DNA of 64,000 nucleotides from Candidatus Burarchaeum australiense (GTDB lineage Archaea; Micrarchaeota; Micrarchaeia; Burarchaeales; Burarchaeaceae): contig CABMJK010000039.1 in the NCBI GenBank assembly GCA_902386535.1, positions 678 through 64,677 of the forward strand, in the 5' to 3' direction. The notes under the pieces were generated by a model, which ran no database searches, was not told where the DNA came from, and was given only the letters and a program-made list of their open reading frames with translations. The translations under genes and the position numbers were made by a program. The stretch's first letter is position 1. The number at the start of each line of letters is the position of its first letter. This document shows, piece by piece, positions 1-29,195 of the stretch.

Positions 1-2545
1 CGAAAATCGGGTAGGCGCGGTTTATCTGCGGGGCAGTCTTCAGTTGCGAGTAGACATAGAAGTTTCCGGTGGTATCCTTCATGTAGCAGTTGGTGGGCGT
101 GAAGCGCGTGGTGCCGGCCGCATCCGCGTCGTCATAGCCGGCCTGGGGCGCTACAAGGCCCCGTGGATCGGCCACGACTTTCAGGTCCCCGGTCGAAGCG
201 TCCCGCTCGAGCCGCTCATTGCATATCGCGTAGCAGCCGTTTTCCGTGTCCTTGGCGAGGCTGGCGGGCGTGCCGCTGCAGACGTAATTCGGGTCAAAGG
301 CCGCCGTGTCCGGGAAAGGCATGCAGTCGGATGCGCACTTGAACCCGCTGGTGCCGGGCTTCATGGGCAGCTGGTTGGCGGAACTCACGCACTCCAGACC
401 AGTGCCACCCGTGGCTGCGGGGCCGCCGCACACGCGTGCAGTGTCATCGCAGGTTTCCCAGAATGAGCAGGGCGCGCACGTGCAGGCCTTGGGCTCGGAG
501 CGCATGAAGAAGCGGCTCTTGTCGGCAGTGTAATAGTTGCCGCAGAACTTGAAGAAATTGTAGTCGCGTGTCGCGCCTCCCGAGAAGTCGAGCATGTCGT
601 CCGGCTTTAGCAGCGTGTCGATTGTCGCATAGGGAGGCGTGGCGCCCGAGACAGAAGGCACTATCATGCCTATGTAGCCCGCGTTTGCCAGTGCCTCGAA
701 AATCCTCGTGTCCGGCGGCAGGCCCGTGAACGCGGGGTTGGCAAGGCCGGCATAGGCGCAGTCCGGGTTTGGAAGGTAGGCGTAGAGAAGCCAGCCGATG
801 GATTTTTTGCCGGCATATAGGGGGTTTGACTGCACGGCTTTGGCGCGCGCAACGGAATCGGTTATGGCCTGCGTGACTTCAGCCGTGCTTGGGCAAGTGG
901 ATGCGGTGCCGAGCGTCACCTCTCGCACCAGCATGTCGATGTCCGCCAAGTAGGCTTGCGGTATCGGCTGGGAGCTGCCGTCATCCTCGACCGCCACGAG
1001 GCAGGACTGCTTGAAAATCGTGACCATGGTGCCCGTACCATCGTCAATCTGGTCCTGAATCGGCTTGCAGCCGCCGTAGGCCGGATTCGCGTTCTTTATT
1101 TGTGTCGAGTATTGGTAACTAAACTTGTCCAGGACAAAAATCACTGGATAGATTGGGCCGTCGCTGGTTGAGGCGCTCTTGGAAACGGCGTTGGCCACAT
1201 CCTGCAGGTAGGGGTCGAACGACCATCCCTGCACGTTCAGCACGGGCAGGATGTTCATGTCGAGCAGTGTGCGGTAGTTGGGCGCGTTCATCATGTCCGA
1301 CATTTCGAAAGGCGCCAGGTCCATCGTGGGCAGGCAGCTTTCGCACAGACCGTATTCGTCGAGCTCGAGCTTGCCTTCCTTGTTGACCGCGCAGTCGCCG
1401 GTTTTTCCGGGGTTGACCTCCCACTCGACGCAGTAGCGAGTGGTGCCGACATCCTGGTAGGCCTTGCAGGTTGCTTCTACGGGATTTGCCGGCGCGGAGC
1501 ACTTGGCATAAACGGGCAGGTCCGAGGGGTTTGCATAATCGCTCAGGAGGAGCGCGTTCGGATGCGCCGTAAGGTCTGCCCACACCCTGTTCGCAGCGGG
1601 CGAGTGGCACCATTCGGGCATGCTTGGGATGATGGTGGAACTCGGAGGCGGCGTTTCGTCGGGGTCGGACCACGTGAGGCCATAGGTGTCGAAGAAAAGG
1701 TCGCCATCCGGGTCATAGGATCTCACGGTGCGGCACTGGCAGTCAGTCTCGTCAACCGGGAAGCCGTTGCTGTCGATTTCCGCATAGTTCAGCCCGTTTC
1801 CATTCATGTCCTTCCTGCACGCGCTCTGATATGCGCGGCCCTTGTTGCAGTTGCCCGAGGCGCAGAAGAGGGAGTTGGGAGCCTTCTCTGAACCCGGCAC
1901 GAGCGAGGAGGAAAGGGTCTTGGAGCCGGTGAAGAGGCAGAGGTAATCGGATGGCTGGATGCCGGGCGCAAGATTGAGGAATATGTTCCTGTATTGGTCG
2001 ATTGTGGGCTGATTGCCATTCGTGAGCACGTTTTCCTCCAGGAGCTTTTTGCTTGCAAGCCAGCCGTCGCCTCCGCCGAACGAGCGGTAAACGTTCTGCC
2101 ACCGGTCCGTCGTGCCCGGGGAGGCGAAGGCGCAGTATTTGTCGCTCATCGGGCAGTATTTCATAGCGTCCACGAAGCCGCCGCTATCCCAACTTTTCAC
2201 CCCTACGCCGAGCATGAACGGCTTCTGGAACTGGTTCTGATTATCGTTCAGCTGCTTGCTGAGCGCCGCGCCGCAGGGCTGGAACCAGCACCGCCCGCCC
2301 CTGAGGCCAGAACCTGTTTCGGAAAGGAAAGTCGGGCTCATGCCGCCTGGCGCAATCGTATCCGCCGGGTCCTGGCTCGCCCGCTCGCACACCAGGCACG
2401 AGCATCCTTCGCAGCCGTTTGGCGTGACTGTCGGTTGAACCGCGGTGGTCGAAAGATAATCGGGCTTCACTAGGCAGCCCGAAAGCAGGAGCGCGAGCGT
2501 CAGCGCAAGCACGGCAAATGCAAGATACTCGAATTGCTTTTTAAT
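1..2545 (-). CDS. Large secreted Cys-rich lipoprotein, C-terminus beyond left window edge (>848 aa); last gene of the membrane-paralog operon
   Basis: The minus frame with codon first bases at 2545, 2542 and so on has no stop between 2545 and 1. That is why it is absent from the M-to-stop ORF track; the other two minus frames are broken into the short listed ORFs. I hand-translated several stretches. The N-terminus reads (I)KKQFEYLAFAVLALTLALLLSGC, a charged n-region, hydrophobic core and lipobox L-S-G-C. The body is rich in Cys, Asn, Pro, Tyr and Trp. The start codon is unresolved (ATT 2545, GTG 2512, or ATG 2553/2550 if the A5 run 2538-2542 is really A6). Confidence 0.6.
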   Translation of the reverse strand, partial: MKKQFEYLAFAVLALTLALLLSGCLVKPDYLSTTAVQPTVTPNGCEGCSCLVCERASQDPADTIAPGGMSPTFLSETGSGLRGGRCWFQPCGAALSKQLNDNQNQFQKPFMLGVGVKSWDSGGFVDAMKYCPMSDKYCAFASPGTTDRWQNVYRSFGGGDGWLASKKLLEENVLTNGNQPTIDQYRNIFLNLAPGIQPSDYLCLFTGSKTLSSSLVPGSEKAPNSLFCASGNCNKGRAYQSACRKDMNGNGLNYAEIDSNGFPVDETDCQCRTVRSYDPDGDLFFDTYGLTWSDPDETPPPSSTIIPSMPEWCHSPAANRVWADLTAHPNALLLSDYANPSDLPVYAKCSAPANPVEATCKAYQDVGTTRYCVEWEVNPGKTGDCAVNKEGKLELDEYGLCESCLPTMDLAPFEMSDMMNAPNYRTLLDMNILPVLNVQGWSFDPYLQDVANAVSKSASTSDGPIYPVIFVLDKFSYQYSTQIKNANPAYGGCKPIQDQIDDGTGTMVTIFKQSCLVAVEDDGSSQPIPQAYLADIDMLVREVTLGTASTCPSTAEVTQAITDSVARAKAVQSNPLYAGKKSIGWLLYAYLPNPDCAYAGLANPAFTGLPPDTRIFEALANAGYIGMIVPSVSGATPPYATIDTLLKPDDMLDFSGGATRDYNFFKFCGNYYTADKSRFFMRSEPKACTCAPCSFWETCDDTARVCGGPAATGGTGLECVSSANQLPMKPGTSGFKCASDCMPFPDTAAFDPNYVCSGTPASLAKDTENGCYAICNERLERDASTGDLKVVADPRGLVAPQAGYDDADAAGTTRFTPTNCYMKDTTGNFYVYSQLKTAPQINRAYPIF

Positions 2546-2554
2546 CCCATCATC

Positions 2555-3565
2555 TCACAAAATTTTCGACAGGCCTTGCATCACTTCCTGGCTTTCAGCG
2601 CCGAATATCGGCGAGAAGGCCCTTATGAATAACACGGTGGCTGCCAGCGCAATAAGGGGCGTGAGTATTATTTCAAGTATGAGGGTGGCCAGGGTGGCGC
2701 TGATTGTTTGCACCGTGAGCTTGGCCTGCGCGGCCACGGCCAAATCGCCCGCGTAGGTCTGCATGGTGCCCCCCAGGTCGGCATAGACGCACTTGTTCGG
2801 GTCGAGGTCGGCGAACGACGTGTCAGACCTGGCAAGCTGCTGGCTCAGGAGCACGTCGGTCAGCAGGAAGATTATCGGAAAGACGAAGTAGAAGCCCAGG
2901 ACCAGCGCAATTAGCAGGCCTCCGGCGCCCCGCGTGAACGGGATTGCGCGCAGCACTATGCCGATTGGCAGGAAGAGGGGAATGAACCACGTGTCGATGT
3001 AATTAACGAGCAGCAGCGCGGTGTTCAGGCCAACACGGTATTGCACCAGCTTGTAGGCAAGCGCATGCAGGCTCTCGGTGAGCGGGTGGAGGCTCCAGCC
3101 GCACTGCACCTCGGTGCCGAAGAAGATGAAGCAGGTCCACTCGGCGCGCTCGACGCGCAGGTCCATTTTCACCACGTCCGCATAGAGCTTGTCTAGCTGC
3201 TGGTCGATGATGTCGAACCTGTCGTGCACGTACTCGAGCGGGTTGCTTGCAGGCGCGGGCGATATGGTTATGCCCCAGCCGGACGGGGCCGTGACTGCAG
3301 GCACCGTGAGCTGGGTGAAGACCGATGCGATGAAACTGGCAAGCGCAATGAGGCCGAGAATCATTATTGCCGAGGCAAATGTCTGCATGAGCTCGCCCAC
3401 GAGCCAGCGCCGCATGCGCTCGTTCCGCAGGGCCACGGCGACCATGTAGAGCAGGGCCAGCACGAAGATTATGATGAGGATTACCAGGATCGAGACTTGG
3501 AGTCCTGAGGCGCCTATCCCCTGCAGGGGGTTTTCCCAGACGTTTGCAAGCGTGGGCGGGGCCAT
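2555..3565 (-). CDS. Polytopic membrane protein, paralog P1 of the LRxIxFTRxxGG family (336 aa)
   Basis: ORF-track translation shows several hydrophobic segments. Motif B is GIVLRAIPFTRGAGGLLIALVLGFYFVFP; the C-terminal tail is FGAESQEVMQGLSKIL. It lies 2 nt downstream of the P2 stop. Confidence 0.75.
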   Translation of the reverse strand: MAPPTLANVWENPLQGIGASGLQVSILVILIIIFVLALLYMVAVALRNERMRRWLVGELMQTFASAIMILGLIALASFIASVFTQLTVPAVTAPSGWGITISPAPASNPLEYVHDRFDIIDQQLDKLYADVVKMDLRVERAEWTCFIFFGTEVQCGWSLHPLTESLHALAYKLVQYRVGLNTALLLVNYIDTWFIPLFLPIGIVLRAIPFTRGAGGLLIALVLGFYFVFPIIFLLTDVLLSQQLARSDTSFADLDPNKCVYADLGGTMQTYAGDLAVAAQAKLTVQTISATLATLILEIILTPLIALAATVLFIRAFSPIFGAESQEVMQGLSKIL

Positions 3566-3567
3566 AG

Positions 3568-4530
3568 TTACACCAACTGCGACAGGCGCATAAGGTCAAG
3601 CTCGCTGCCGAAAAGGCCTGCGAGCTCTCTGCCGAATGCGGCCAGCAATATGAAGTCAAGCGCGGGCAGGAAGACGGTCACGAAGCCCGCAGTTGCCGCC
3701 ATGAGCGCCATGGGCCCTATGCAGGCACCTTCGCCCGTGGCCAGACATTTGGGAGGCAGCGTAAGCGGCGCGTTGACGAGGGGCCCGTAGGCTATGAGCG
3801 CGTTGAGGAAGAGGAGCAGGGGCAGGCCCAGGTAGAGCACCAGGGCAAGGGCCATGAGCGCGCCGCCAAAGCCCCGCATGTAGGGAATGGAGCGGAAGAT
3901 GGCTCCGAGCGGGAAGAGCAGCAGGAGCGCACCGCTTGACGCGTACTGGAGCATGAAAAGCAGGGAGGAAATCGAGAGCATTGCGACCATCAGCGAGTTG
4001 AGTATGAAATAGCCTGCGCCCATTTTGGAGTAATAACCTGTGCCGGGGTCGATGCTCCAGCCTTGCGGGAGTATGAGGCAGATGCTGGTCAGGCACGAGA
4101 ACTTGCTCACCGATGCCTGCACCTCCCAGTGCTGGAGGACCGTTTGCACGGGCAGATAGTAATTGGCATAGGTGAGATGCTGCAAATCCGCGAGGTAGGT
4201 GGTGCTTGCCTGGAAGAAATCTCCGGCACCCGTGAAACCCGGCGGCAGCATGGGCGCAGGGCCCAGCGCAGGATGGAGGTAATAGTAGAAGAACGAGAGG
4301 TCGACGGCGCAGGCAATTCCTATGATGAAGGCAGCTCCGGCGACGAACATGACCGTTGCCGCGGCCTCGTAGATTTCGATTTTGGCCCAGGCCGTGATGG
4401 TGGGGACGCGGAAGAGCTTGCCCAGCATGTAGAGCAGCGAGACCGTGAGTATGGCGAGGAATGCGCTAAGCCCGATTATCGCAGACCAGGTTGCAAGGCC
4501 GGTGAGGCCTATCGTGCACGACGCCATCAT
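3568..4530 (-). CDS. Polytopic membrane protein, paralog P2 (320 aa)
   Basis: The track ORF 3568..5631 is trimmed to ATG-ATG at 4530/4527 (MMASCTIGL...). Its upstream 367 aa are Arg/Pro/His-rich off-frame sequence overlapping P3. Motif A is SLLYMLGKLFRVPTITAWAKIEIYE, motif B GAIFRSIPYMRGFGGALMALALVLYLGLP, tail FGSELDLMRLSQLV. It overlaps the P3 stop by 4 nt (ATGA). Confidence 0.75.
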   Translation of the reverse strand: MMASCTIGLTGLATWSAIIGLSAFLAILTVSLLYMLGKLFRVPTITAWAKIEIYEAAATVMFVAGAAFIIGIACAVDLSFFYYYLHPALGPAPMLPPGFTGAGDFFQASTTYLADLQHLTYANYYLPVQTVLQHWEVQASVSKFSCLTSICLILPQGWSIDPGTGYYSKMGAGYFILNSLMVAMLSISSLLFMLQYASSGALLLLFPLGAIFRSIPYMRGFGGALMALALVLYLGLPLLLFLNALIAYGPLVNAPLTLPPKCLATGEGACIGPMALMAATAGFVTVFLPALDFILLAAFGRELAGLFGSELDLMRLSQLV

Positions 4531-5273
4531 ACCACTCTCGCGAGTTGCGACACCTCTATCTCGCTTCCAAGGAACGAAGCGAACCATCTTATGAACGTGA
4601 GCGTCACCAGCAGGTTCATCACCGGCAGGAGTATGGAAACTATTATCACCCAGTATGCCATGGGCTCGATGAACTGGTGCCGGTTGGTGAGCATATTGCG
4701 GTATGCGACGTCGCCGCTGCACACGCCGTTGAAGGAGGTGGGGGCTGGTGGAATCGAGATGGTGGCATAGGGCGGCAGGACGGGCGGGTTTGGCGGTTTG
4801 AGGGTGGGAACGAAAATCATTTTGGCCACCATGGAGTAGTCTGCCATCACCATCAGGGGATAGACGATGTAGAGCCCTATGGCCACGGCCATCATTGCCC
4901 CGCCCACGGCGCGCGTGAACTTGATGGTCCTCAGCAGCACCCCGACCGGGAAGAGAAGCACGAAAATCTGCTTTGCTGCCTCGAGCAGCAGCCACTGCGC
5001 CTGCATGGCTATCGTGGCCGATGAGAGGGCCGTAAGCGCAACTCCGAGCGTGCCCTGCGTGGCGCCCAGGTATTTGCACGATGCTATGGAAAAGCCAGCC
5101 GTGCTTCCGAGTATCTGGCAGTAGGTGATTGTCGAGCTCACGGCGCCCACGCCAATCGCCGTTTCCTCCATCCTGCCCGTAAACACCGAGAGGTTGTAGG
5201 CAATCTCGTTCGTGTAGGCCTCGGCAAAGTAGAAGGAATCTATCGAGCCCGTGGTCAGCAGGTTGGTGCGCAC
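4527..5273 (-). CDS. Paralog P3, C-terminal part (248 aa from GTG); same frame as 5304..5738, separated only by a TAA
   Basis: Carries motif B (GVLLRTIKFTRAVGGAMMAVAIGLYIVYP) and tail LGSEIEVSQLARVV but lacks the family N-terminal TM and motif A. These are supplied by the upstream 144-aa ORF in the same reading frame. Confidence 0.6.
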   Translation of the reverse strand: MRTNLLTTGSIDSFYFAEAYTNEIAYNLSVFTGRMEETAIGVGAVSSTITYCQILGSTAGFSIASCKYLGATQGTLGVALTALSSATIAMQAQWLLLEAAKQIFVLLFPVGVLLRTIKFTRAVGGAMMAVAIGLYIVYPLMVMADYSMVAKMIFVPTLKPPNPPVLPPYATISIPPAPTSFNGVCSGDVAYRNMLTNRHQFIEPMAYWVIIVSILLPVMNLLVTLTFIRWFASFLGSEIEVSQLARVV

Positions 5274-5303
5274 TGTGGCAAGGTTGGGCAGGGCCGGGTT
5301 GAC

Positions 5304-5738
5304 TTAAGAGACTGCAGGCAGGTCGTCCGGGGCGAACTTGAAGGTCGAGGCCAGGCCTGGCAGCAGGTAGTTGTGGGCAGTCCACAGGAAGGATGCGAGC
5401 AGGAAGACGAAGACGAAGGAGATTATGGCCTGCACGAATTCGTCCCTCAGCATCACCTGCAGGTAGGGCATTTCCATCGAGGTTGCGATGATGTAGAGCA
5501 GGGCCATCACGAAGATCAGGATTAGGACCAGGAGGACCGATATGGCCTCCCAGCTGTTCCAGTCGTCGGGCACGCAGGCGCACTCGTTGCTGGCCGGCTG
5601 CCTCATACCGAACGGGCACGAGCCTATGCAATTGCCCGAAGCGTCTTTCTGGGCGAGGCCGAGGCAGCCGCTGAGAAGCAGGAGCGAGGCTGCCAAAAAT
5701 GCAAGCAAGCCGAATGCCCAGAGTTTTCCGATTTTCAT
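5304..5738 (-). CDS. Paralog P3, N-terminal part (144 aa): lipobox signal peptide, small Cys-rich segment, motif A
   Basis: MKIGKLWAFGLLAFLAASLLLLSGC is a signal peptide with lipobox. VMALLYIIATSMEMPYLQVMLRDEFVQ aligns with motif A of the other paralogs. The ORF ends at TAA 5304-5306, in frame with 4527..5273. Confidence 0.6.
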   Translation of the reverse strand: MKIGKLWAFGLLAFLAASLLLLSGCLGLAQKDASGNCIGSCPFGMRQPASNECACVPDDWNSWEAISVLLVLILIFVMALLYIIATSMEMPYLQVMLRDEFVQAIISFVFVFLLASFLWTAHNYLLPGLASTFKFAPDDLPAVS

Positions 5739-5775
5739 CTCATATCATCCTCGTGTCTCGCATCAGCCTCGCGCA

Positions 5776-7605
5776 TCATATCAGCCTCATCAGTCCCTCA
5801 ATCTCGATGTCCCCGCCCAGAAGGGGCGAGAAGACCTTGATGAACGTTATCGTTATTATGAAGTTGAAGATCGGCAGGATGAGGCCCGCGACTATCAGCT
5901 GGGCCAGCCCAATTACATCTCCCGTCACGACATAGTTGTTGGAGTCCAGGGCCGGCACCGCGCCCGATGTAAGGGAAGTCTGGTCAGTGCACTTTTTCTG
6001 CACTTCCGGGTCCGGGAGAATCGTGAGGCGCGCAGCATCGGCCGCACTGGTAACGAGGTCGCCCGCAGCCGCGTCATAGCCCGCGCACAGCTTGCAGGCC
6101 TCGGCCACGGACGGGTCCTCCCAGCACGCATTCGGAAGGCCGGGCAGCACCTCGTCGAAATAGTTCGGGTAGCTGGGCGGGCTTATGCCGGCTTTCCTGT
6201 AAGTTATGCGGCAGTCGGCGTTGGCGTTCGAGGGGCAGGTCGAGCACTCGGTTTTGTACGGATCCAAAAGCGGGTTCGAAACCACGTAATCGTTGCACGA
6301 GGCTATGAAAAGATTATTGAGTTGGGCATAGTCCCTGGCCTGCGCCCGGTACTTCGCCGAATCGGCGTCCCCTCCGTTTGCTTTCGCGAAAGCATTGCAG
6401 CCCGCGTCCATCGAGCACGGGAACGCGATGTCCAGGAAGGTGGCGGCGCAGCTGCGGTAGCACAAATCATAACTCGGATAGAGGGCCTTGGGAGGCGTGG
6501 TCGCATCCTTGCAATAGCCTTCGCACGCGTCATTGCACGCGGTTTGCGCGAAAGGCGGCGCGGCAGGATTTGGAGCCGTGCACGCTGCGGCGCACTTCTG
6601 GCCCACGCCCACGGGCACCTCGACGTAGAGGTCATTGCGCGGGCAGCAAGTGGCGAGGTCTATCTTGGAATTCGGGTCTATCAGCGGATCGCCATAATCT
6701 TCGCAGTATTGGATGCCGATTCCTGTGGGCTCGTTGTATTTCACGTTCAGTGAGATGGGGAAGGAGTATTGGAAGAGAAGGTAGGTCAGAGGATAGACCG
6801 TGAAGAGGGCGATGGCAATCGCAATCAGGAGCCCGCCCAGCTTGCGCGTGAAGAAGATGGCGCGCAGCACGACTCCGGCTATCAGCAGGAGCGGTATCAG
6901 GCTCGCCTGCAGGTATTGCAGGAAGAGCTGCTGCGCATTCAGCGAGGCGGCCAGCCGCATGGCCTCGTCCGCTATCTGCATGTCCCGGTCGCTGAAGATG
7001 TCCACGCCGGCGGCATAGCGCATCGAGAAGCCGGAGAAGAATGCGGGAAGCAGGTCAACTGCCACGAGGCTGAACTTGCCGGTGGATTTGCCTATCATCT
7101 TGACCGCGTGGATGGTGGAATCGTGCGTGAGCTTCAAGCTGATGTCGCGCAAGTCGGAAAGGTAGGTCTCGGCCATCAGGAATTGCTGCTCGCCGCTCGT
7201 GCAGGGGAGAGTGGGGGCGAGGGGGTTCGAGAGGTTGACCAGCGAGCACGAAAGCTGGCTGAGGGTTGAAAAGAGAAGGATGAGCATGAAGATTATGAGC
7301 ATGGACATGCCGGCCTGGAAGAACTCGGTGACGGCCCAGGCGTGCAGCTCCTTGCTCTGCGAGAACTCGGCCAGCAGGTAGACCAGCGAGATTATGAGTA
7401 TTGTCACGAACACTATGAGCAGCGAAGTGGTGCCCCAGTTATCCTGCAGCCACGAGGTGGTGACCTGGTTTTCGGAAGGCCCTGGCGCGTTGACGGGAAG
7501 GCCCGCGCACCCGGAGAGGGCCAGCACTAGGAAGATGAAGAGGAGCACGAGCGCAGTCGCCGCAAACGATGCACGGGCTCTCGGGGCCCTGTTTTCATTC
7601 TGCAT
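5776..7605 (-). CDS. Paralog P4 (609 aa) with lipobox signal peptide and an about 270-aa Cys-rich ectodomain insertion
   Basis: LVLALSGC is a lipobox. Motif A is SLVYLLAEFSQSKELHAWAVTEFFQ, motif B GVVLRAIFFTRKLGGLLIAIAIALFTVYP, tail LGGDIEIEGLMRLI. About 20 Cys lie between aa 285 and 560 (nt 5926-6753). Confidence 0.8.
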   Translation of the reverse strand: MQNENRAPRARASFAATALVLLFIFLVLALSGCAGLPVNAPGPSENQVTTSWLQDNWGTTSLLIVFVTILIISLVYLLAEFSQSKELHAWAVTEFFQAGMSMLIIFMLILLFSTLSQLSCSLVNLSNPLAPTLPCTSGEQQFLMAETYLSDLRDISLKLTHDSTIHAVKMIGKSTGKFSLVAVDLLPAFFSGFSMRYAAGVDIFSDRDMQIADEAMRLAASLNAQQLFLQYLQASLIPLLLIAGVVLRAIFFTRKLGGLLIAIAIALFTVYPLTYLLFQYSFPISLNVKYNEPTGIGIQYCEDYGDPLIDPNSKIDLATCCPRNDLYVEVPVGVGQKCAAACTAPNPAAPPFAQTACNDACEGYCKDATTPPKALYPSYDLCYRSCAATFLDIAFPCSMDAGCNAFAKANGGDADSAKYRAQARDYAQLNNLFIASCNDYVVSNPLLDPYKTECSTCPSNANADCRITYRKAGISPPSYPNYFDEVLPGLPNACWEDPSVAEACKLCAGYDAAAGDLVTSAADAARLTILPDPEVQKKCTDQTSLTSGAVPALDSNNYVVTGDVIGLAQLIVAGLILPIFNFIITITFIKVFSPLLGGDIEIEGLMRLI

Positions 7606-8557
7606 TGGGCATCTCCACCTCGAAGCCCCTGGACAGGAGCTTTGAGAAAGCCATTATGAAACTAACGGTTATCACGATTGCCAGGTTGGGCAGGAAAACC
7701 GCCTGCGGGATGAGGGAGGCGGCCTGGGCCAGCGGCAGGTTCGGGTCGCTTGCCACGTCCTTCGAGATGATGCCCGCCAGGTCCGGCGGCGTGGATGTGC
7801 GGTCGATTGAAGACATGTCCACGCCGGGCGCGAGCGGCGGGTTGCCGTTGACGATCACGATGTTCATCACGTAGGTGAGCGGCAGGACCAGCACCAGGCC
7901 CAGCGAGAGCGCTATCAGATAATCGGCCATCGTCCTCGTCTGCGGGAATATGCGGAGCAGGAAGGCAGCGGGCAGGAAAAACGGTATGATGACCATCTCG
8001 ATGGCGCCCAGCAGGGCCTTCTGCGCGGTGAGGCTTGCAATCAGCGGCATGAGCATGTTCATCAGCGCGTCCTGCGCGTTCGCCAGCGTCTTCTTTCCCG
8101 CGCTCTTGGCAGAACCTTCGGCGCCGGTGATGGGATTTGAGTTGAACTGGAAGTCGAGCGAGTCCAGCTGGTTCTGTATGCTGGCGCCTATCAGCGAGTT
8201 CACGAGCGGGTAGCCCTGGCCGTAGGCAAGGTTGTTCAGGTAATTGGTGGATGCGGTGAACATGTTGGCGCCCACGAGCGCCTGCGAGGCGGACGAGCCG
8301 GCAATCAGCATAAGATTCACGCCGAGTATGAGGCCCAGGGAGACCATGACCTGGAAGCCCGAGTTCTTGGCCCACGTTTCCCACTGCGGCCTGTGGAACG
8401 CCTGCGAGGCCATGTAGGCTAGAGCTATTATGAATATGGAAATCATCAGCAGGATGGCGATTGCCGATGCTTCCGCGTCGATGCTCACCAGGAAGTTGTC
8501 CGCGCTCGCTAGGCCGGCGAAAAGCAGGACAATGAAGGCCGCGATTGCAAATTTCAT
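7595..8557 (-). CDS. Paralog P5 (320 aa), most divergent member, Sec-type signal peptide
   Basis: MKFAIAAFIVLLFAGLASA is the signal peptide. Motif A is IALAYMASQAFHRPQWETWAKNS and motif B is the divergent AFLLRIFPQTRTMADYLIALSLGLVLVLP. It overlaps the P4 start by 11 nt. Confidence 0.7.
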   Translation of the reverse strand: MKFAIAAFIVLLFAGLASADNFLVSIDAEASAIAILLMISIFIIALAYMASQAFHRPQWETWAKNSGFQVMVSLGLILGVNLMLIAGSSASQALVGANMFTASTNYLNNLAYGQGYPLVNSLIGASIQNQLDSLDFQFNSNPITGAEGSAKSAGKKTLANAQDALMNMLMPLIASLTAQKALLGAIEMVIIPFFLPAAFLLRIFPQTRTMADYLIALSLGLVLVLPLTYVMNIVIVNGNPPLAPGVDMSSIDRTSTPPDLAGIISKDVASDPNLPLAQAASLIPQAVFLPNLAIVITVSFIMAFSKLLSRGFEVEMPNAE

Positions 8558-8598
8558 TTTTTACCACTCAGTTTTTGTCACTCATTCACGTTTACCAC

Positions 8599-9801
8599 TC
8601 ATATGAGCTTGTAGATCCCGTAGAACTGCGAGTCCCCGCCCAGCTGCTGGGAGAGAGAGCGGGTGGCTGAGAGCGTGATGATGATGCTGAAAACCGCGAG
8701 CGCGGCGGTTATCATGGCGTCGTGCGAAACGGCAGCAAGCGCGCCCTTGTTCGGGTCTGTGCGGTCGACGAGGCCATAGTAAATGTCGTTCACGTTGACG
8801 GCCGCATACTCCTTCAGCGTGGAGGCATACTTTACCAGGAATACGCTGTTTACCTTGCTATAGAGCGAAAGGGCCTTCGGATATTCTTGGAGCATGCAGA
8901 CCCAATAGCCATGCGCGAAGCCGACGCATTTGGGCGTATACCAGATGAACCACCAGGTTATCGAGCCGAGCCATGTGAATTCCTGCACGAACTGGTTGCA
9001 TATCATCGTGTCCTGCAGGTCCGGGGGCTCGTGCGGCAGATTGATTGTTATGTCGCGCATTATGGAGGGCTGGCTGTAAACGCCCGCGGCGAATACGAGG
9101 GTCATGGGATAAACGACGTAGGTGCCTATGGCAATGGCAATGAGGGTCGCGCCGAGCTTCCGCGAGAAGGTGAACGTGCGGAGCACTATGCCGAGAGGCA
9201 GAATCCACCGGAAGGAGTTGTCCCAGAAGAACTGGAGGAGCACGCTCTGGGCAGACTGTATGAAAATTGCGGCAGCCAGCGCGTCGAGGCCGGCGGCAAT
9301 GAGCGAACTCAGGACGTTGAGACCCGCATAGGGCGCGCCCGAGAAGGAGGCGCTGACCAGGAAGAGCGGAATCGCGATGTTGTAATAGAAGCTCGTCATC
9401 TTCGCCACGTAGCGGTCGGCGTCCAGGAGCTTGTTGTAAACCAGCAGCATGTAATCCGCGCTGCCGGCGAGGTAGCATTGGGCGAAATCGTACATGGCGC
9501 TGAAAGTCGGGGTGGGCGCGGGAGTGCACGAGGCTATGGGGGCCGGTGTTCCGCTCACCGTGCCGAATTGCAGATTCAACGGCCCCTGCGCCAGCTGGTT
9601 GACTCCGATGTCGACGAGCCCCATCCCGAGGGCAAGGCCGGCTATCAGAACGGTCGTGACTACGAGCTCGCGGTATTCGACCTTTGACCAGGCCTCGAGC
9701 GCGGGCAGGTGGAAGCCTTTTGAGAGCATGTAGGCCAGGCTAACGATGAGGGCTGAAATGAAGAGCGCGATCGCGGCTATCGGCAGCCAGTCAGAAAACA
9801 T
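8599..9801 (-). CDS. Paralog P6 (400 aa), first gene of the operon
   Basis: Motif A is SLAYMLSKGFHLPALEAWSKVEYRE, motif B GIVLRTFTFSRKLGATLIAIAIGTYVVYP, tail LGGDSQFYGIYKLI. A TATA-like element lies about 30 nt upstream of the ATG. Confidence 0.8.
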   Translation of the reverse strand: MFSDWLPIAAIALFISALIVSLAYMLSKGFHLPALEAWSKVEYRELVVTTVLIAGLALGMGLVDIGVNQLAQGPLNLQFGTVSGTPAPIASCTPAPTPTFSAMYDFAQCYLAGSADYMLLVYNKLLDADRYVAKMTSFYYNIAIPLFLVSASFSGAPYAGLNVLSSLIAAGLDALAAAIFIQSAQSVLLQFFWDNSFRWILPLGIVLRTFTFSRKLGATLIAIAIGTYVVYPMTLVFAAGVYSQPSIMRDITINLPHEPPDLQDTMICNQFVQEFTWLGSITWWFIWYTPKCVGFAHGYWVCMLQEYPKALSLYSKVNSVFLVKYASTLKEYAAVNVNDIYYGLVDRTDPNKGALAAVSHDAMITAALAVFSIIITLSATRSLSQQLGGDSQFYGIYKLI

Positions 9802-9831
9802 TCGTCTACCGCCCGGCTATCGACGAATAGG

Positions 9832-9842
9832 TATTTAAATTT
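9832..9842. promoter_or_regulatory. Palindromic TATA-like element (TATTTAAATT) in the divergent intergenic region between P6 and the GNAT gene
   Basis: This is the only AT-rich box in the 54-nt spacer. It lies about 30 nt from ATG 9801 (minus) and about 15-40 nt from the candidate plus-strand starts (9856/9874/9883). The archaeal TATA consensus is TTTAWATA. Confidence 0.45.
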
Positions 9843-10296: not shown

Positions 10297-10302
10297 GATC
10301 AG

Positions 10303-10375
10303 TGGGGCCGCTGAGATTTGAACTCAGGTCACCAGGTCCCAAACCTGGTAGCATACCAGACTGGCCCACGGCCCC
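10303..10375 (-). tRNA. tRNA-Pro (anticodon UGG), no intron, no encoded CCA
   Basis: Hand-folded sequence: GGGGCCG TG GGCC.. anticodon stem CCAGG/CCTGG, loop UUUGGGA, T-arm CTGAG-TTCAAAT-CTCAG, acceptor CGGCCCC, discriminator A. Confidence 0.85.
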
Positions 10376-11899: not shown

Positions 11900-12021
11900 A
11901 GCCCCAGACGAGAATTGAACTCGCTACCTACTGCTTTCTCGTTTCTTTTCCGCCGGCGCTTTTCTTTGGGAAAGAAAAGGGCCGCTACAAGGCAGTCGCT
12001 CTACCGATGAGCTACTGGGGC
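11900..12021 (-). tRNA. tRNA-Thr (anticodon UGU) with 50-nt intron at canonical 37/38 (intron 11936-11985)
   Basis: Hand-folded: GCCCCAG TA GCTC ATCGGTA GAGC G ACTGC CUUGUA|intron|A GCAGT AGGTA GCGAG TTCAATT CTCGT CTGGGGC T. The acceptor, anticodon and T stems all pair. Confidence 0.85.
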
Positions 12022-13551: not shown

Positions 13552-14841
13552 GTGGGAATTCTCATACGCAACGCGCTCGTGCTCACCCAGAATGAGCGGC
13601 GCGAGGTCCTGAAGGACTGCGACGTGCTAATCGAGGCTAATCGGATTGCCAAGGTAGGCAAGGGCATGCGCGAGAAGGCGGAGCACGTGCTTGATGGCAG
13701 GGGCAAGCTAGTCATGCCCGGCCTCGTGAACACCCATACGCACCTGGCCATGACCCTGCTGCGCGGCTATGCGGACGACATGAGGCTGGAGGACTGGCTC
13801 GAGAAGAAAATCTGGCCGCGCGAGGCCAAGCTTAAGCCCGCGGACGTGCGCGCGGGCTCCATGCTGGGCTGCCTGGAGATGATAAGGGGCGGCACTACCT
13901 CTTTTGTGGACATGTATTTCATGATGGGCGAGACTGCGGCCGCGGTCGAGAAGTGCGGCCTGCGCGCCAACCTCGCCCATGGCATGATCGATATGGACAA
14001 GCCGGAGAGGAGGAAGAAGGAGCTGGCTGCGGGCGAGGCATTCGTGCGCGAGTGGAACGGAAAGGTCAGAGGCAGGATCATGGCTTCCTTCGGGCCGCAC
14101 GCCATATACACCTGCTCGCGCGAGCTGCTTGAGAAGACGAATGAGCTCGCGCACAAGCACGACGTGAAGATTCACATTCATTTGAGCGAAAGCAGGAAGG
14201 AAGTGGTGGACTGCCTGGCAAAGCACTCGAAGAGGCCCGCAGACTACCTCGAGTCTTTCGGCTTCCTGAGCAAGAGAGTGATAGCCGCGCACTGCGTCTG
14301 GCTGAGGCGCGAGGAGTGCGCGCTCCTGGGCAAGCGCGGCGTGAGCGCCTCCCACGTGCCCGCGAGCAACATGAAGCTGGCGGGCGGGGGCGCGATGCCC
14401 ATTCCGGAGCTCGAGCAGGCAAAGGCGAACATCTGCCTGGGCACCGACGGCGCGGCCTCCAACAACTCGCTCTCGATGTTCGGGGCCATGAAGCTCTGCG
14501 CGCTGCTGCACAAGAATTCCCGGTGGGACGCCACGGTGGCTCCGGCGCAGCAGGTGCTCGACTTCGCCACCCGCAACGGGGCGCGGGCAATGGGCGCGGA
14601 GGCGGGAGCGATTGCGGAGGGCAGGCTGGCCGACCTCATCATGCTTGACCTGAGGAGCCCGAACCTCGTGCCGATGCACAGCGCGGTCTCGAACGTGGTG
14701 TATGCCGCGAGCGCGGGCAACGTCACCGACGTGATTGTCGACGGGAAGATTCTGATGCGGGAGAGGAAAGTGGTTGCCTTTGACGAGGAGAAAGTGATGG
14801 AGGCGGGCGAGAAGGCGGCGTTTGATTTGGTTTCGCGGTGA
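13552..14841 (+). CDS. mtaD: 5'-methylthioadenosine/S-adenosylhomocysteine deaminase (amidohydrolase, MtaD/DadD type)
   Basis: ILIRNALVLT...VMPGLVNTHTHLAMTLLRGYADDMRLEDWL...HLSES...VAAHCVWL...GTDGAASNN is the metal-binding signature of this amidohydrolase subfamily. The start is trimmed from GTG 13519 to GTG 13552, downstream of the TATA box. Confidence 0.85.
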   Translation: MGILIRNALVLTQNERREVLKDCDVLIEANRIAKVGKGMREKAEHVLDGRGKLVMPGLVNTHTHLAMTLLRGYADDMRLEDWLEKKIWPREAKLKPADVRAGSMLGCLEMIRGGTTSFVDMYFMMGETAAAVEKCGLRANLAHGMIDMDKPERRKKELAAGEAFVREWNGKVRGRIMASFGPHAIYTCSRELLEKTNELAHKHDVKIHIHLSESRKEVVDCLAKHSKRPADYLESFGFLSKRVIAAHCVWLRREECALLGKRGVSASHVPASNMKLAGGGAMPIPELEQAKANICLGTDGAASNNSLSMFGAMKLCALLHKNSRWDATVAPAQQVLDFATRNGARAMGAEAGAIAEGRLADLIMLDLRSPNLVPMHSAVSNVVYAASAGNVTDVIVDGKILMRERKVVAFDEEKVMEAGEKAAFDLVSR

Positions 14842-14938
14842 AGGCAGGTTGACGGGGAAAGGAAGCGGAGATGAGGCGAGGAAAGGTCGGGAAAGTTGGC
14901 GGGCTAGTAACAAGGGGCAGGAAAGAAGGCGGCGAGAG

Positions 14939-15664
14939 GTGGTGTGCGTGCTTGGAATAATCGGCGGGAGCGGCTTCTACAAAATTGTGAAGGGCGAGGA
15001 GAGGCACGTGGAGACGCCCTATGGCTGGAGAAAGGTCAGCCTGGGCCGCATTGGCGGAGGAAAGATTGCATTCATAGCAAGGCACGGTGAGTATCACACG
15101 GTCCCGCCGCACAGGATAAATCATCGCGCTAACCTCTACGCACTGCACAAGGTGGGCGCGAAGAGCATCGTGGGCATAAACGCGTGCGGCATAATCTCGA
15201 AGTTCAAGCCCGGCGAGATAATGACCATCGACGACTTCCTCGCGTTCCACATCGGCCCGGTCACGTTCCATGAAAGTTTTGCAGGAGGGGCGAAGCATGA
15301 GGACATGAGCGAGCCCTACAGCAGGAAGCTGAATGCGCTGATTGCACGGGCGGGCGGGAAGGCGAAGATTGCCGTGAAGAGCGGCGGCATTGTGGCGACC
15401 ACGTTCGGGCCGCGCTTCGAGACCCCGGCCGAGATAAGGGCCTTTGGGATGCTGGGCGCGAACTTGGTGAGCATGACGAGCGCCTACGAGGCGATTCTTG
15501 CGCGCGAGCTTGGCGCTAATTACTCGTCGATTGCCATCGGCACGAATTACGCGGCGGGCGTGAGCAAGAACCGGCTGTCGCATGCCGAGGTGATCGGGAT
15601 GATGGAAAAGAACGAGGCACGCGTGATAAAGATAGTGGGCGGGCTGGCAGGAAGCATGGGATAG
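14939..15664 (+). CDS. mtnP: S-methyl-5'-thioadenosine phosphorylase / purine nucleoside phosphorylase (MTAP family)
   Basis: VLGIIGGSGFY...FIARHG..H..PPHRINHRANLYAL...GPRFETPAEIR...LVSMT. The start is set to GTG 14939 because the upstream part of the track ORF is low-complexity and overlaps the end of mtaD. Confidence 0.85.
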   Translation: MVCVLGIIGGSGFYKIVKGEERHVETPYGWRKVSLGRIGGGKIAFIARHGEYHTVPPHRINHRANLYALHKVGAKSIVGINACGIISKFKPGEIMTIDDFLAFHIGPVTFHESFAGGAKHEDMSEPYSRKLNALIARAGGKAKIAVKSGGIVATTFGPRFETPAEIRAFGMLGANLVSMTSAYEAILARELGANYSSIAIGTNYAAGVSKNRLSHAEVIGMMEKNEARVIKIVGGLAGSMG

Positions 15665-15708
15665 AAAGTTGGCGGCAGATTTGCGGAGAGACTTACGGAG
15701 ATGATTGC

Positions 15709-16992
15709 ATGAGCAAAGTGAAGGATTTGGGCTTGAAGGCAGAGGGCGAGGACGAGCTTTCGTGGGCCCGCGAGAACATGCCTGCGCTGGCCAGCATAAG
15801 GAAGAGGTTCGAGAAGGAGAAGCCGTTCAGGGGCATGCGCATAGCCGTGGCCCTGCACCTGGAGAAGAAGACTGGCATATTGCTCGAGACCCTGAAGGCA
15901 GGCGGAGCCGCGGTTGCGGCCGCATCGTGCAACCCGCTCACCACCGACGACAGGGTGGCGGCCGCGCTGGCAGGGCAAATGGAAGTTTACGCGTGGGCGG
16001 GCGAGAATTCCAAGGAGTATGAGTGGTGCCTGGGCAAGGTGCTGGACTCGAAGCCCAACATAGTCATCGATGACGGCTGCGACCTCATACTAATGCTGCA
16101 TGACAAGAGGAAGGAGCTGCTGAAGGACGTGCGGGGCGCGTGCGAGGAGACCACGACGGGCGTGCGCAGGCTGCGGGCCATGGAAACCGATGGAAAGCTG
16201 AAGGTGCCGGTGATAGCCGTGAACGACGCCTATTCGAAGCATCTTTTTGACAACAGGTTCGGGACAGGGCAGAGCGCCGTGGATGCCATAATGCGCGCTA
16301 CCAATGTAGTGCTAGCGGGAAAACGCGTCGTAGTCGTGGGCTTCGGCTGGTGCGGCCGGGGCATTGCCGAGCGCATGCGGGGCATGGGTGCGCGCGTGAT
16401 CGTGGTCGAGGCTGCCGGCGCGCCGCTCAACGGCACGGAAAGCGGCTACCACCGGGCGCTCGAGGCGCTTTACTCGGGCTATGACGTCATGACCATGGAC
16501 GAGGCGGCCCGCGTGGGGGACATATTTGTTACGGCTACCGGCAACAAGCACGTCATAGCGCGCAGGCATTTCGAGCTGATGAAGGACGGCGCCATGGTGG
16601 CCAATGCCGGCCACTTCGACCTCGAGGTCGACGTGCAGGGCCTCAGGCAAATGGCGAAGAAGAGCAGGAAGCTCGGGCCGAACCTGGAGGAATATCTGCT
16701 TGGGAACGGCAGGAGGGTGCGGCTTCTTTCCGAGGGAAGGCTCGTGAACCTGGCGAGGCCGAGCGGCCAGGGCCATCCGGCGGAGATAATGGATGCCTCG
16801 TTTTCGCTGCAGGCGCTGAGTGCCGAACGAATAGCCAAGCAGGGCGGCAGCATGCTGCCCGCGGTCCACGATGTGCCGCCCCAGCTGGACGAGATGGTTG
16901 CGCGGCTCGTGCTCGAGTCGAGGGGCGTGCGGCTTGACAGGCTCACCAAGGAGCAGGAGCACTACGTCAACTCGTGGCGAGAGGGAACCTGA
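15709..16992 (+). CDS. ahcY: Adenosylhomocysteinase
   Basis: SCNPLTTDD, ETTTG, GFGWCGRG (NAD-binding), ATGNKHVI and GHFDLEV motifs over 427 aa. Confidence 0.95.
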   Translation: MSKVKDLGLKAEGEDELSWARENMPALASIRKRFEKEKPFRGMRIAVALHLEKKTGILLETLKAGGAAVAAASCNPLTTDDRVAAALAGQMEVYAWAGENSKEYEWCLGKVLDSKPNIVIDDGCDLILMLHDKRKELLKDVRGACEETTTGVRRLRAMETDGKLKVPVIAVNDAYSKHLFDNRFGTGQSAVDAIMRATNVVLAGKRVVVVGFGWCGRGIAERMRGMGARVIVVEAAGAPLNGTESGYHRALEALYSGYDVMTMDEAARVGDIFVTATGNKHVIARRHFELMKDGAMVANAGHFDLEVDVQGLRQMAKKSRKLGPNLEEYLLGNGRRVRLLSEGRLVNLARPSGQGHPAEIMDASFSLQALSAERIAKQGGSMLPAVHDVPPQLDEMVARLVLESRGVRLDRLTKEQEHYVNSWREGT

Positions 16993-25449: not shown

Positions 25450-26793
25450 TCACCCGCCGTCCTTGCGCCGCAGCGCATCCATATGCGCGATTCTCTTTTT
25501 TATAAGTTCCGCGGTCCCGATGTCGCGCCTGTGGAATAGCTTGCCGGTCACATGTGAGCACGCGCGCTCGGTCCGACGCTCGGCCTCCTCGATGTTGTCG
25601 CCCTGCCCGACCAGCGCCACCGTGCGCGAGCCCAGCATCAGGAGCTTTCCCTCGCGCTCGTCCACGCTCGCGTAGAAAATCCTGCACCCGCCATTGCGGC
25701 CTATGGCGTCCTCGTTCACCTCGATGGGCTCGCCCTTCAGCGGCTTTTCCGGATAGCCTTCGGGCACGAGATATTTGCAGACGCTCGCCTTCTGAGCGAA
25801 CCGCATCTCGCCGCGCGCGAGCCTGCCCTCGCCTATGCCCGCGGCAATCCCGGCGAAATCGCCCTCGAGCAGGGGCAGCACGTTCATGGCCTCGGGGTCG
25901 CCGAAGCGCGAGTTGAACTCTATCACCTTGACCCCGCGGGCAGTGGCCATGAACTGGCCGTACAAAATTCCGCGGTAGGGCGCGCCCGCCTTTGCGAGCG
26001 CGGAAACTGTTGAACGCATTATGTCGAGCGCCTCGTCGCGCTCGCGCTCCGAGAGGAAGGGCAGGAGGTGGTTTGCGTCGGAATAGCTCCCCATGCCGCC
26101 CGTATTTGCGCCTTTATCGCCTTCCAATGCCAGCTTGTGGTCCTGCACGAGCGGCATGCCCGCGAGCCCGCGGCCGTCGACAAAGGCCTGCAGCGTGAAC
26201 TCCTCGCCCTCCAATTTTTCTTCTACGACAACGCTTCCCAATTTCCCGATGTTGGCCGAGATAACTTCAGCGGCATACCGCTTGGCCTCCTCGCCATCCC
26301 TCAGCTGCTTGCCCGTGACCTTCACACCCTTGCCTCCCGTGAGGCCCGCGGGCTTTATCGCCACTGCGCCGCCCAGCTCGTCAATGAAATCGGCCGCCTC
26401 GCGCGCATCGCCTGTCGCGAGGAACTTCGGGCAGCCGGCAATCTTGTTCTTTCGCATGAGCTCGCGCGCGAAGGACTTGTCCCACTCGATGCGCGCAGCG
26501 GCGCGCGAAGGCCCGCAGACCAGCACCTCGTTTTTTTCGAGCTCATCGACAACCCCTTTCTCAAATGCCGCATCCGGTCCGATTACTGCAACCTCGACCT
26601 TTCGCGTCTGGGCCCATTTGGCAACCGAAACGGCATCACAAATATCGCCCACCGCCCATTCCTCGCTCAACCTCATTATGCCGGGATTGCGGGCGCTCAT
26701 GAAGGAGTAAAGCTCGCAGCCGTCCGCACGCGCAAGCGCGTCGGCCATGGCGTGCTCGCGCCCGCCGCTTCCGACTAACAAGACCCGAACCAT
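25450..26793 (-). CDS. purD: Phosphoribosylamine-glycine ligase
   Basis: MVRVLLVGSGGREHAMA..., ATP-grasp body, 447 aa. Confidence 0.9.
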   Translation of the reverse strand: MVRVLLVGSGGREHAMADALARADGCELYSFMSARNPGIMRLSEEWAVGDICDAVSVAKWAQTRKVEVAVIGPDAAFEKGVVDELEKNEVLVCGPSRAAARIEWDKSFARELMRKNKIAGCPKFLATGDAREAADFIDELGGAVAIKPAGLTGGKGVKVTGKQLRDGEEAKRYAAEVISANIGKLGSVVVEEKLEGEEFTLQAFVDGRGLAGMPLVQDHKLALEGDKGANTGGMGSYSDANHLLPFLSERERDEALDIMRSTVSALAKAGAPYRGILYGQFMATARGVKVIEFNSRFGDPEAMNVLPLLEGDFAGIAAGIGEGRLARGEMRFAQKASVCKYLVPEGYPEKPLKGEPIEVNEDAIGRNGGCRIFYASVDEREGKLLMLGSRTVALVGQGDNIEEAERRTERACSHVTGKLFHRRDIGTAELIKKRIAHMDALRRKDGG

Positions 26794-26821
26794 GGAATCA
26801 TCCTAAATCAGCTGCCTGAAT

Positions 26822-28312: not shown

Positions 28313-28354
28313 ATCAATACCTCAACTGCAAACCTTTTAATCTGATGTTGCGCC

Positions 28355-29194: not shown

Positions 29195-29195
29195 C

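Follow-up and report, generated by a model that had tools for sequence, protein, structure and literature searches.

A six-gene array of paralogous membrane proteins kept in fixed order across Micrarchaeota: candidate core of a cell-to-cell contact or transfer apparatus

We analyzed a 64-kb window (the whole stretch of DNA under study) out of the 1.2-Mb metagenome-assembled genome (MAG) of Candidatus Burarchaeum australiense, a member of the class Micrarchaeia, phylum 'Microcaldota', in the kingdom Nanobdellati (DPANN), a host-dependent lineage. The window is archaeal, with a signal recognition particle RNA and tRNAs present, and its minus strand carries an operon of six paralogous membrane-protein genes (g1 to g6) followed by a gene for a Cys-rich lipoprotein (g7). 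The six paralogs share three collinear elements: motif A, made of an N-terminal transmembrane (TM) helix and the amphipathic stretch after it, motif B, which is a charged loop between two hydrophobic helices, and motif C, the last TM helix with a conserved C-terminal tail. The paper describing the organism does not mention this locus (PMC8561730). All open reading frames (ORFs), coordinates and junctions listed in a first-pass annotation of the sequence were reproduced. Seven ORFs do precede the last frame, as it had counted, but they make up only six paralog genes, g4 being split in two ORFs. The junctions consist of one 2-nucleotide (nt) spacer, one ATGA overlap, one 11-nt overlap and gaps of 30, 37 and 41 nt. 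A TATA-like box (TTTAAATA, 9831-9838, minus strand), read from the sequence about 30 nt upstream of the g1 ATG, is the putative promoter of the operon.

All seven genes lie on the minus strand; we give the first-pass labels in brackets, together with scores against position-specific hidden Markov models (HMMs), which were built for array positions 1-6 from 66 loci. g1 (P6; 8599-9801, 400 amino acids) is the subfamily 1 member, has no signal peptide, ends in the tail GGDSQFYGIYKLI and is 54% identical to g1 of a sister species (Burarchaeum sp., locus L001); it scores 282 bits against the orthogroup-1 HMM and 175 bits against the next-best orthogroup. g2 (P5; 7595-8557, 320 amino acids; subfamily 2, 294 versus 111 bits) opens with a Sec-type signal peptide. 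Its motif B (TRTMADYL) and tail (SRGFEVEMPNAE) are divergent, and the same deviations are found in the orthogroup-2 consensus, from other genomes. g3 (P4; 5776-7605, 609 amino acids; 306 versus 168 bits) carries the lipobox LALSGC, and its product has a 100% identical counterpart among NCBI proteins, from Ca. Burarchaeum australiense. Subfamily 3, to which it belongs, is the best conserved of the six, with the motif LRxxFFTRKLGG and the tail GGDIEIEGLMRLI. g4 (4527-5738, 403 codons in one frame; 283 bits against the orthogroup-4 HMM versus 164) has the N-terminal lipobox LLLSGC and an in-frame TAA, and so appears as two pieces, a 144-amino-acid ORF (5304-5738) and P3 (4527-5273, 248 amino acids). 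The start of g5 (P2; 3568-4530, 320 amino acids; subfamily 5, 248 versus 121 bits) overlaps the g4 stop in the ATGA junction. g6 (P1; 2555-3565, 336 amino acids; subfamily 6, 284 versus 153 bits) is 57% identical to g6 of the sister species. g7 occupies positions 1-2548, is open at the window edge, and encodes the lipobox LLLSGC and 39 Cys residues. Reading the translations confirmed the lipobox or Sec signals that had been noted in three paralogs and in the last protein, namely lipoboxes in g3, g4 and g7 and the Sec-type signal peptide in g2. The pattern [LVI][ASTVI][GAS]C is satisfied in g7, g3 and g4, which are predicted lipoproteins on this basis.

The proposal that the six proteins are collinear paralogs is borne out by pairwise BLASTP similarity far above chance (E 6e-16 to 2e-4, 23-28% identity, collinear over most of each protein). 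Five alignment positions (Y76, R248, R254, A262 and P272) are invariant in all six. With an E-value limit of 1e-3, a family profile made from the paralogs and their first homologs retrieved 3147 representative proteins, of which 638 reached E <= 1e-30; among the matches listed, the C-terminal tail LSPLLGGD(I/V)EI(P/A)GLxRLI is near-identical in almost all. No match past any cut-off was obtained in Pfam, NCBIfam or PHROGs for the window proteins, 56 family members or the six subfamily consensus sequences. A sequence-profile search of PDB with the family gave no match at E <= 10, and Foldseek comparison of two confident AlphaFold2 models (g5 and g3) with PDB and BFVD returned nothing significant. 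In all these resources the motifs stand outside any named family, in agreement with the first impression. High-probability matches to VirB6/TrbL, FtsX or GspF, which had been named as the families that could claim these proteins, were looked for and none was obtained. The T2SSF domain (PF00482; platform proteins GspF, PilC, TadC and ArlJ) gave no match at E up to 1. FtsX/MacB-type and other permeases were without a match in Pfam and NCBIfam, and the transporters found by Foldseek remained at E > 0.2 with template-modeling (TM) scores of ~0.1. More than 3000 representative sequences define a family that current domain libraries wholly miss, and we found no description of the six-gene array in the literature searched on type IV secretion systems (T4SS), CedA or VirB6 in DPANN or Micrarchaeota.

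Each paralog has five hydrophobic segments, and cleavable signal peptides are predicted ahead of TM1 in g2, g3 and g4. Because signal peptides precede TM1 in these three members, we infer that the N-terminus lies outside and that each paralog has five TM helices, with the C-terminus inside. This topology would place the loops of motifs A and B and the tail in the cytoplasm, and the variable, Cys-rich parts outside. The invariant Arg residues fall in the short loop between TM3 and TM4, and 20 of the 23 Cys residues of g3 in its 278-amino-acid TM4-TM5 loop. The AlphaFold2 models of g5 (predicted local distance difference test, pLDDT, 81.9; predicted TM score, pTM, 0.78; all long helices) and g3 (pLDDT 79.8) both contain six long helices of 33-50 residues each, exceeding a membrane span.

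We searched for relatives of the array in one genome per GTDB species. The scan returned 156 relatives, of which we examined the best 80 loci; nearly all of these best 80 are labelled Micrarchaeota or Micrarchaeia. Burarchaeum australiense itself was not returned because its motifs differ from the search patterns. Of two metagenome scans, one gave no relative and the other a 742-kb contig (L089). Annotation of the loci by HMM showed tandem, same-strand arrays, and in every Micrarchaeota locus that leaves over 1.2 kb of sequence on both sides of the array (51 of 51 loci) the family genes number exactly six, on the same strand. For each window gene, the HMM of its own position beats that of every other subfamily by more than 100 bits, and reciprocal best matches remain positional even against a locus of only ~25% identity. 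Motif B and the tail come in variants that are fixed within each subfamily; subfamily 2, for instance, is without GG and GGD in every lineage.

Because orthology is positional and the copy number constantly six, the sequences place the sixfold duplication at a time before the phylum radiated: these are ancient subfamilies, and all copies have been kept in order. Retention of all six copies in order is the signature of a hetero-oligomer in which every subunit is obligate and present once; as a reading of gene content, it implies an obligate six-subunit hetero-complex. The first-pass annotation had raised the idea of a hetero-oligomeric envelope complex whose subunits arose by duplication and whose outer loops diversified. 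This idea is strongly supported, and the absence of the array from related genomes, which it had listed as a possible counterargument, is not what we observed, as the array spans the whole phylum. At least seven Micrarchaeota genomes have a pair of complete six-gene arrays, of which one is A-like and accompanied by a Cys-rich giant protein and the other is D-like (L012/L026, L030/L041, L014/L078, L017/L020, L019/L021, L040/L075 and L051/L069). These pairs indicate that the whole hexad was duplicated en bloc early. The tree of subfamily 6 is divided into an 'A+B' half and a 'C/D' half, and arrays linked to pilins and an ATPase group with the A-type arrays, including that of the window.

The array occurs in three recurrent contexts, which we call A-type, B-type and C/D-type. 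In the A-type, to which the window belongs, a lipobox protein with 40-100 Cys residues comes after the array. C/D-type arrays have housekeeping neighbors (leucyl-tRNA synthetase, two FtsZ genes and DUF2070), which we regard as conserved synteny only. The B-type loci (L004-L011) include a complete genome (L010, CP058998, Ca. Fermentimicrarchaeum limneticum) and have a co-directional, near-gapless order of two to three small genes, the array, two paralogous proteins of ~270 amino acids with two TM helices each, a 512-amino-acid ATPase, a 99-amino-acid protein and more conserved genes. The gaps from the array to the two-TM proteins and the ATPase measure 0 to ~10 nt.

The small genes upstream of B-type arrays encode candidate pilins: 14 of 16 match PF18895 (T4SS_pilin, best E 1.5e-7) and 6 of 16 match PF04956 (TrbC/VirB2, best E 1.4e-7), while the top PDB hit is TrwL of R388, a VirB2 (E 0.12). 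In 13 of the 16 (for example L010 5531-6287) one Cys closely follows the signal peptide and a second stands at or close to the C-terminal end; by analogy with cyclised TrbC, this pair may form a disulfide or a head-to-tail link. In Pfam, the 512-amino-acid ATPase matches AAA_10, DUF87 and the P-loop domain of TraG. The NCBIfam models that fit it best are CedD (5e-19), CedB (5e-18) and the VirB4-like CD1110 (3e-15). Its P-loop domain aligns in full with 4AG5, the C-terminal domain of VirB4 (E 2e-10), but only partially with HerA structures.

The ATPase belongs to a conserved module (L010 14183-21385, L085 1943-8272 and L086 9181-15390), which in other genomes also exists apart from the array. 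The module comprises the ~270-amino-acid two-TM protein, the VirB4/CedB-like ATPase, a protein of 99-154 amino acids that is homologous to the C-terminal domain of the ATPase, a ~250-amino-acid coiled-coil protein with a faint CdvB_HTH match, and a ~850-amino-acid protein with an N-terminal anchor. The 270-amino-acid ATPase partner had no match in PDB or Pfam when likeness to VirB3, VirB8 or the VirB4 N-terminal domain was sought. Linkage of pilin and ATPase to the array is tight in L004-L011 and loose in L003, where the module lies 4 kb away from an A-type array, and in L085; the window and its closest relatives do not have it. In Gugararchaeum, a pilin-like gene stands beside the ATPase module, not beside the array, and an HMM search with relaxed settings turned up no more pilin-like genes next to other arrays. 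The first-pass statement that the operon has no ATPase or partner is therefore correct for the window; it does not extend to relatives, whose arrays share an operon with VirB2-type pilins and a VirB4/CedB-like ATPase.

Two of the seven window genes show anomalies. A TAA at 5304-5306 (minus strand) interrupts g4 within the variable outer loop. The 144-amino-acid ORF and P3 are one gene because they share a frame, because the former holds the lipobox and the TM1-TM2 hairpin and supplies the motif A absent from P3, and because the ortholog in the sister species (L001 12060-13238) is uninterrupted at 392 amino acids. Recoding of this stop was rejected, as the codon is TAA rather than TGA or TAG; it could be a true nonsense mutation or a consensus error of the MAG. 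g7 is in the same frame as g6 and follows the g6 TGA immediately, with no ATG, GTG or TTG in frame before the KK n-region. Candidate starts are an ATT at 2545, a GTG at 2512 and an out-of-frame ATGATG at 2553-2548. One extra A in the A5 run at 2538-2542 would bring ATGATG in frame and yield MMGLKKQFEYLAF...LLLSGC. This suggests a one-base (homopolymer) error or a frameshift at the g7 start, although the gene could also start at ATT.

The first-pass annotation called the lipoprotein giant, which it is not. Residues 37-849 of the 849 codons of g7 in the window align with 47-854 of the complete 890-amino-acid ortholog in L089, so that the full length is estimated at about 885 amino acids, with ~36 residues missing. 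g7 is 34% identical to the complete L089 protein. Between the window and the sister species, g1-g6 share 41-57% identity and g7 only 30%, and g7 is fast-evolving by this measure. The same position is occupied in ~20 other loci by lipobox proteins of 1000-2345 amino acids with 40-100 Cys residues (~890 amino acids in Burarchaeales). These proteins have an N-terminal module and a C-terminal region in common and diverge rapidly elsewhere, and most of the 20 show an N-terminus of the lipobox type. Pfam gave no domain in g7 or in the giant proteins at its position, and no Ig-like repeats were detected in g7. The ~850-amino-acid protein of the ATPase module was considered as a relative of g7 and rejected as unrelated. 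The contig of the window, reported at 64,824 bp, ends at most about 0.8 kb from the window, and that of the sister species stops inside g7 (L001 15303-17761); assembly breaks may be favored within this variable gene. In L089, a 965-amino-acid secreted-looking protein without a Pfam domain (13740-16637, minus strand) is convergent with the operon end.

Taken together, these findings make the array the probable membrane core of a hitherto undescribed apparatus for contact or transfer between cells. Because the arrays of relatives are operonic with pilins and a VirB4/CedB-like ATPase, the most likely origin of the system is a derivative of T4SS or of the Ced/Ted machinery. We assign a probability of roughly 45% to the reading that g1-g6 constitute the membrane core of a chromosomal, Micrarchaeota-wide apparatus, in the form of a hexaplicated VirB6/CedA-like platform of T4SS descent. 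The six paralogs would assemble, one copy each, as a pseudo-six-fold ring. Three cytoplasmic elements, namely the post-TM1 loop (YM..F....AWAK.E), the LRxFxFTRxxGG loop and the C-terminal GGD-E-I-x-G-L tail, would make up the face on which a hexameric VirB4/CedB-like ATPase, encoded elsewhere in the genome, docks. The long helices and variable loops would point outward as a stalk base, like VirB6 in bacterial T4SS, and VirB2-type pilins, where present, would be recruited via the same kind of hairpin as the paralog N-termini. In A-type operons, g7 might sit on or beside this base as a module for contact with, or recognition of, the host cell, a part comparable to that of VirB5 or of adhesins. 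The cargo could be DNA, protein, a lipid or a metabolite.

The closest comparison is with DNA import by Ced in Sulfolobales and Ted in Thermoproteales, which employ a VirB2-like pilin (CedA1/TedC), a VirB6-like protein (CedA/TedA) and a VirB4-like ATPase (CedB/TedB). Like these, the Micrarchaeota system would consist of chromosomal, domesticated T4SS-like parts in archaea, and in related Micrarchaeota the array lies between pilins of the VirB2/TrbC type and an ATPase whose best matches are CedD and CedB. Ced also has paralogous channel proteins, as the pairs CedA/CedE and CedB/CedD are known in Sulfolobales (PMC11868833). A pilin-like N-terminus is reported for CedA1/CedA and VirB2/VirB6 (PMC9905601), and a similar resemblance may exist here between the pilins and the N-terminal hairpin of the polytopic proteins. 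Compared by hhalign with each of the six subfamilies, the pilin profile always aligned on the TM1-loop-TM2 hairpin, with P-values of 1e-4 to 6e-3 (probability 6-57%), a weak signal, against 0.05 to 0.5 for reversed controls. Likewise, the parts of Ced and Ted are too divergent for ordinary searches, and without HHpred the components of the two systems are mutually unrecognizable (PMC9905601). The array differs in having six paralogs, all obligate and in fixed order, where those systems have one or two; further differences are the five predicted TM helices compared with six or seven in CedA, the universal GGD-E-I-x-G-L tail and the associated Cys-rich lipoprotein. Moreover, pilin and ATPase are unlinked to the array in this genome, and the array belongs to a DPANN lineage, is phylum-wide and is often present twice per genome.

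A second comparison is with VirB6/TrbL. In the R388 T4SS, TrwI (VirB6) forms the pentameric base of the stalk, which carries the VirB5 tip (PMC9259494). The paralogs share with TrwI a polytopic build, long and mostly hydrophobic helices and a large extracytoplasmic part, and the VirB6-like layout (N-terminus outside, large outer loop, cytoplasmic C-terminus) fits their topology as predicted from sequence. Agrobacterium tumefaciens VirB6 is said to have the same arrangement, with the N-terminus out, five TM helices and the C-terminus in (Jakubowski et al. 2004). In B-type loci the array is placed between pilin and VirB4 genes, as would suit VirB6, and the outer protein g7 encoded alongside could act as VirB5 does. 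The array differs in that it would be hetero-hexameric instead of a homo-pentamer, and in the lack of sequence-profile or profile-profile similarity and of a significant, reproduced fold match.

Several results weigh against descent from T4SS. Homology of the paralogs to VirB6 or CedA is not demonstrated; two weak hints in its favor are the CedA match of g5 and the TrwI ranks of the g5 model, given below. The CedA model (NF041796) matches weakly in only 2 of 56 family members, and g5 reaches E 1.3e-4 and 21.6 bits where the cut-off is 330; TrbL (PF04610) matches none of the window paralogs, the 56 members or the six subfamily consensus sequences. Alignment by hhalign of the six subfamily profiles with a VirB6 profile, a narrow one of 19 Agrobacterium-type sequences, gave P-values of 0.13-0.72, the same as reversed controls. 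Foldseek ranked TrwI/VirB6 chains third and fifth for the g5 model (7o3v_F at rank 3, E 0.41, probability 0.51; TM scores 0.29-0.33), which is insignificant, and placed no VirB6 among the top 50 for g3; both comparisons used monomer models, to which a ring-forming protein may not be comparable. By tblastn, pilin, ATPase and 270-amino-acid partner are absent from the 64-kb window, and on the 742-kb contig g7 is the last gene of the operon. A single clade (8 of ~85 loci) has pilin and ATPase in one operon with the array, and there are two looser cases, which makes for few independent events; the other neighbors of most arrays reflect synteny with housekeeping genes. Homologs of the ATPase occur widely in Micrarchaeota at 60-90% identity, also in the sister genus Gugararchaeum; such phylum-wide identity is unusually high for a secretion ATPase, which could have a different, housekeeping role. 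Finally, in this MAG g4 is interrupted and g7 has no clean start.

The main rival is a stand-alone surface machine without T4SS ancestry: a new hetero-hexameric complex that, as anchor and assembly platform in the membrane, displays g7 and the large outer loops of g3 and others for adhesion to the host or as an envelope scaffold, the proximity of pilin and ATPase genes in one clade being only synteny at the level of the phylum. We consider this form of the rival somewhat unlikely, while the chance of a categorically new system is substantial. The stand-alone reading is favored by the lack of a sequence or fold match to any known family, by the homologous lipobox Cys-rich seventh gene in ~20 loci, by the self-contained operon of the window type and by the presence of only housekeeping neighbors at most arrays. 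It leaves unexplained why the most conserved elements, including the near-invariant tail, are cytoplasmic, which suggests a cytoplasmic partner, and why pilins and ATPase form a near-gapless operon with the array in L004-L011. Nor does it account for the pilin-like N-terminal hairpin, and arrays without any g7 are common. Rather doubtful, in our estimate, is a further possibility, in which the paralogs are not VirB6 homologs but form a new hetero-hexameric envelope conduit, invented in Micrarchaeota, with a hexameric HerA/VirB4-like motor and a pilus- or nanotube-like bridge to the host, whose specificity g7 or the g3 loops would set. The paralogs might also line a pore, with or without an ATPase, through which host lipids, nucleotides or other metabolites are scavenged. 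Their polytopic helical build in a fixed stoichiometric set, the membership of the organism in DPANN and the phylum-wide distribution, often with two copies per genome, agree with such a channel, which is nonetheless improbable given that similarity to transporter families is lacking, that the models have no evident substrate-binding protein or signature of ABC or secondary transporters, and that the g3 Foldseek matches to EAAT/ASCT are only those at E > 0.2 and TM score ~0.1.

The remaining alternatives concern the locus itself. The copy in this genome may be decaying and non-functional, or misassembled, so that the family is real while the operon is not expressed as seven proteins. Besides the stop in g4 and the g7 start without a canonical in-frame codon, where the A5 run lies beside the out-of-frame ATGATG, the source MAG (LFW-281_7) is a short-read assembly in 76 contigs with 5.4% redundancy (PMC8561730). 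All six genes, however, retain every invariant residue and score 248-306 bits against their own subfamily HMMs, there are no further stops or frameshifts, the gene junctions are undamaged, and the two single-base anomalies are equally explicable as consensus errors; decay is thus unlikely. A conjugation module of an integrated mobile element would agree with the tRNA-Pro(TGG) gene that adjoins the operon (10302-10375, ~500 nt upstream) and with the T4SS-like parts in relatives. This explanation is very improbable because the G+C content is even across the window, the GNAT, DUF2666 and amidohydrolase neighbors of the operon are syntenic across three Burarchaeales genomes, and the array is vertically conserved in at least 80 species genomes and has no relatives in IMG/VR; no integrase, relaxase or coupling protein was seen. 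A virus origin was rejected on the same grounds of G+C content, synteny and the negative IMG/VR result.

Multiplication of a channel protein has a parallel in the rvh T4SS of Rickettsiales, which has four to five tandem VirB6 paralogs (RvhB6a-e, 674-1154 amino acids; five in Rickettsia, ~80% divergent; PMC2653234). There too, an obligate host-associated organism shows ancestral tandem multiplication with ~80% divergence between copies, large variable extensions and T4SS genes spread over scattered loci. The Rickettsia proteins keep a recognizable TrbL/VirB6 domain, whereas the Micrarchaeota paralogs have none and are six, with number and order invariant throughout a phylum. Other ultrasmall episymbionts have chromosomal VirB4-family ATPases tied to large surface proteins with a proposed action on the host: the giant 'SPEARE' surface proteins of nanohaloarchaea, which carry a VirB4/TraG ATPase domain (PMC10266531), and the chromosomal T4SS of Patescibacteria (PMC12102498). 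In those cases adhesin and ATPase are fused, or components of the MPF-FATA (mating-pair formation) class are recognizable, and no six-paralog array is described; here g7 is a separate lipoprotein of ~885 amino acids without detected Ig-like repeats.

In Micrarchaeota no machinery is known to serve attachment to the host or exchange of material with it, a question that still awaits an answer for DPANN archaea at large. The locus offers a phylum-wide candidate: it encodes seven proteins here, to which relatives add pilins, a VirB4-like ATPase and no fewer than four partner proteins. Should the T4SS link prove true, the six fixed paralogs would be the most extreme multiplication of a channel subunit known, and domesticated conjugation-type machinery would extend to a third archaeal lineage. 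If instead the paralogs form a new conduit, they would provide the long-sought molecular basis of cytoplasmic contact between DPANN archaea and their hosts.

Elsewhere in the window, Rfam calls a 122-nt tRNA at 11900-12021 (minus strand, 54.8 bits) that ARAGORN does not report and that is probably an intron-containing archaeal tRNA. Two plus-strand ORFs have matches unexpected for an archaeon, one of 482 amino acids (35481-36929) with a peptidoglycan-binding domain (PG_binding_1, E 4.6e-8) and one of 656 amino acids (44724-46694) with a weak Sigma70_r2 match (E 2.9e-7); they may be linked to interaction with bacteria or to gene transfer. A purine biosynthesis cluster with PurD, PurF-like and PurL genes occupies 25450-32246 on the minus strand, in agreement with the de novo nucleotide synthesis that this DPANN lineage has retained (PMC8561730).

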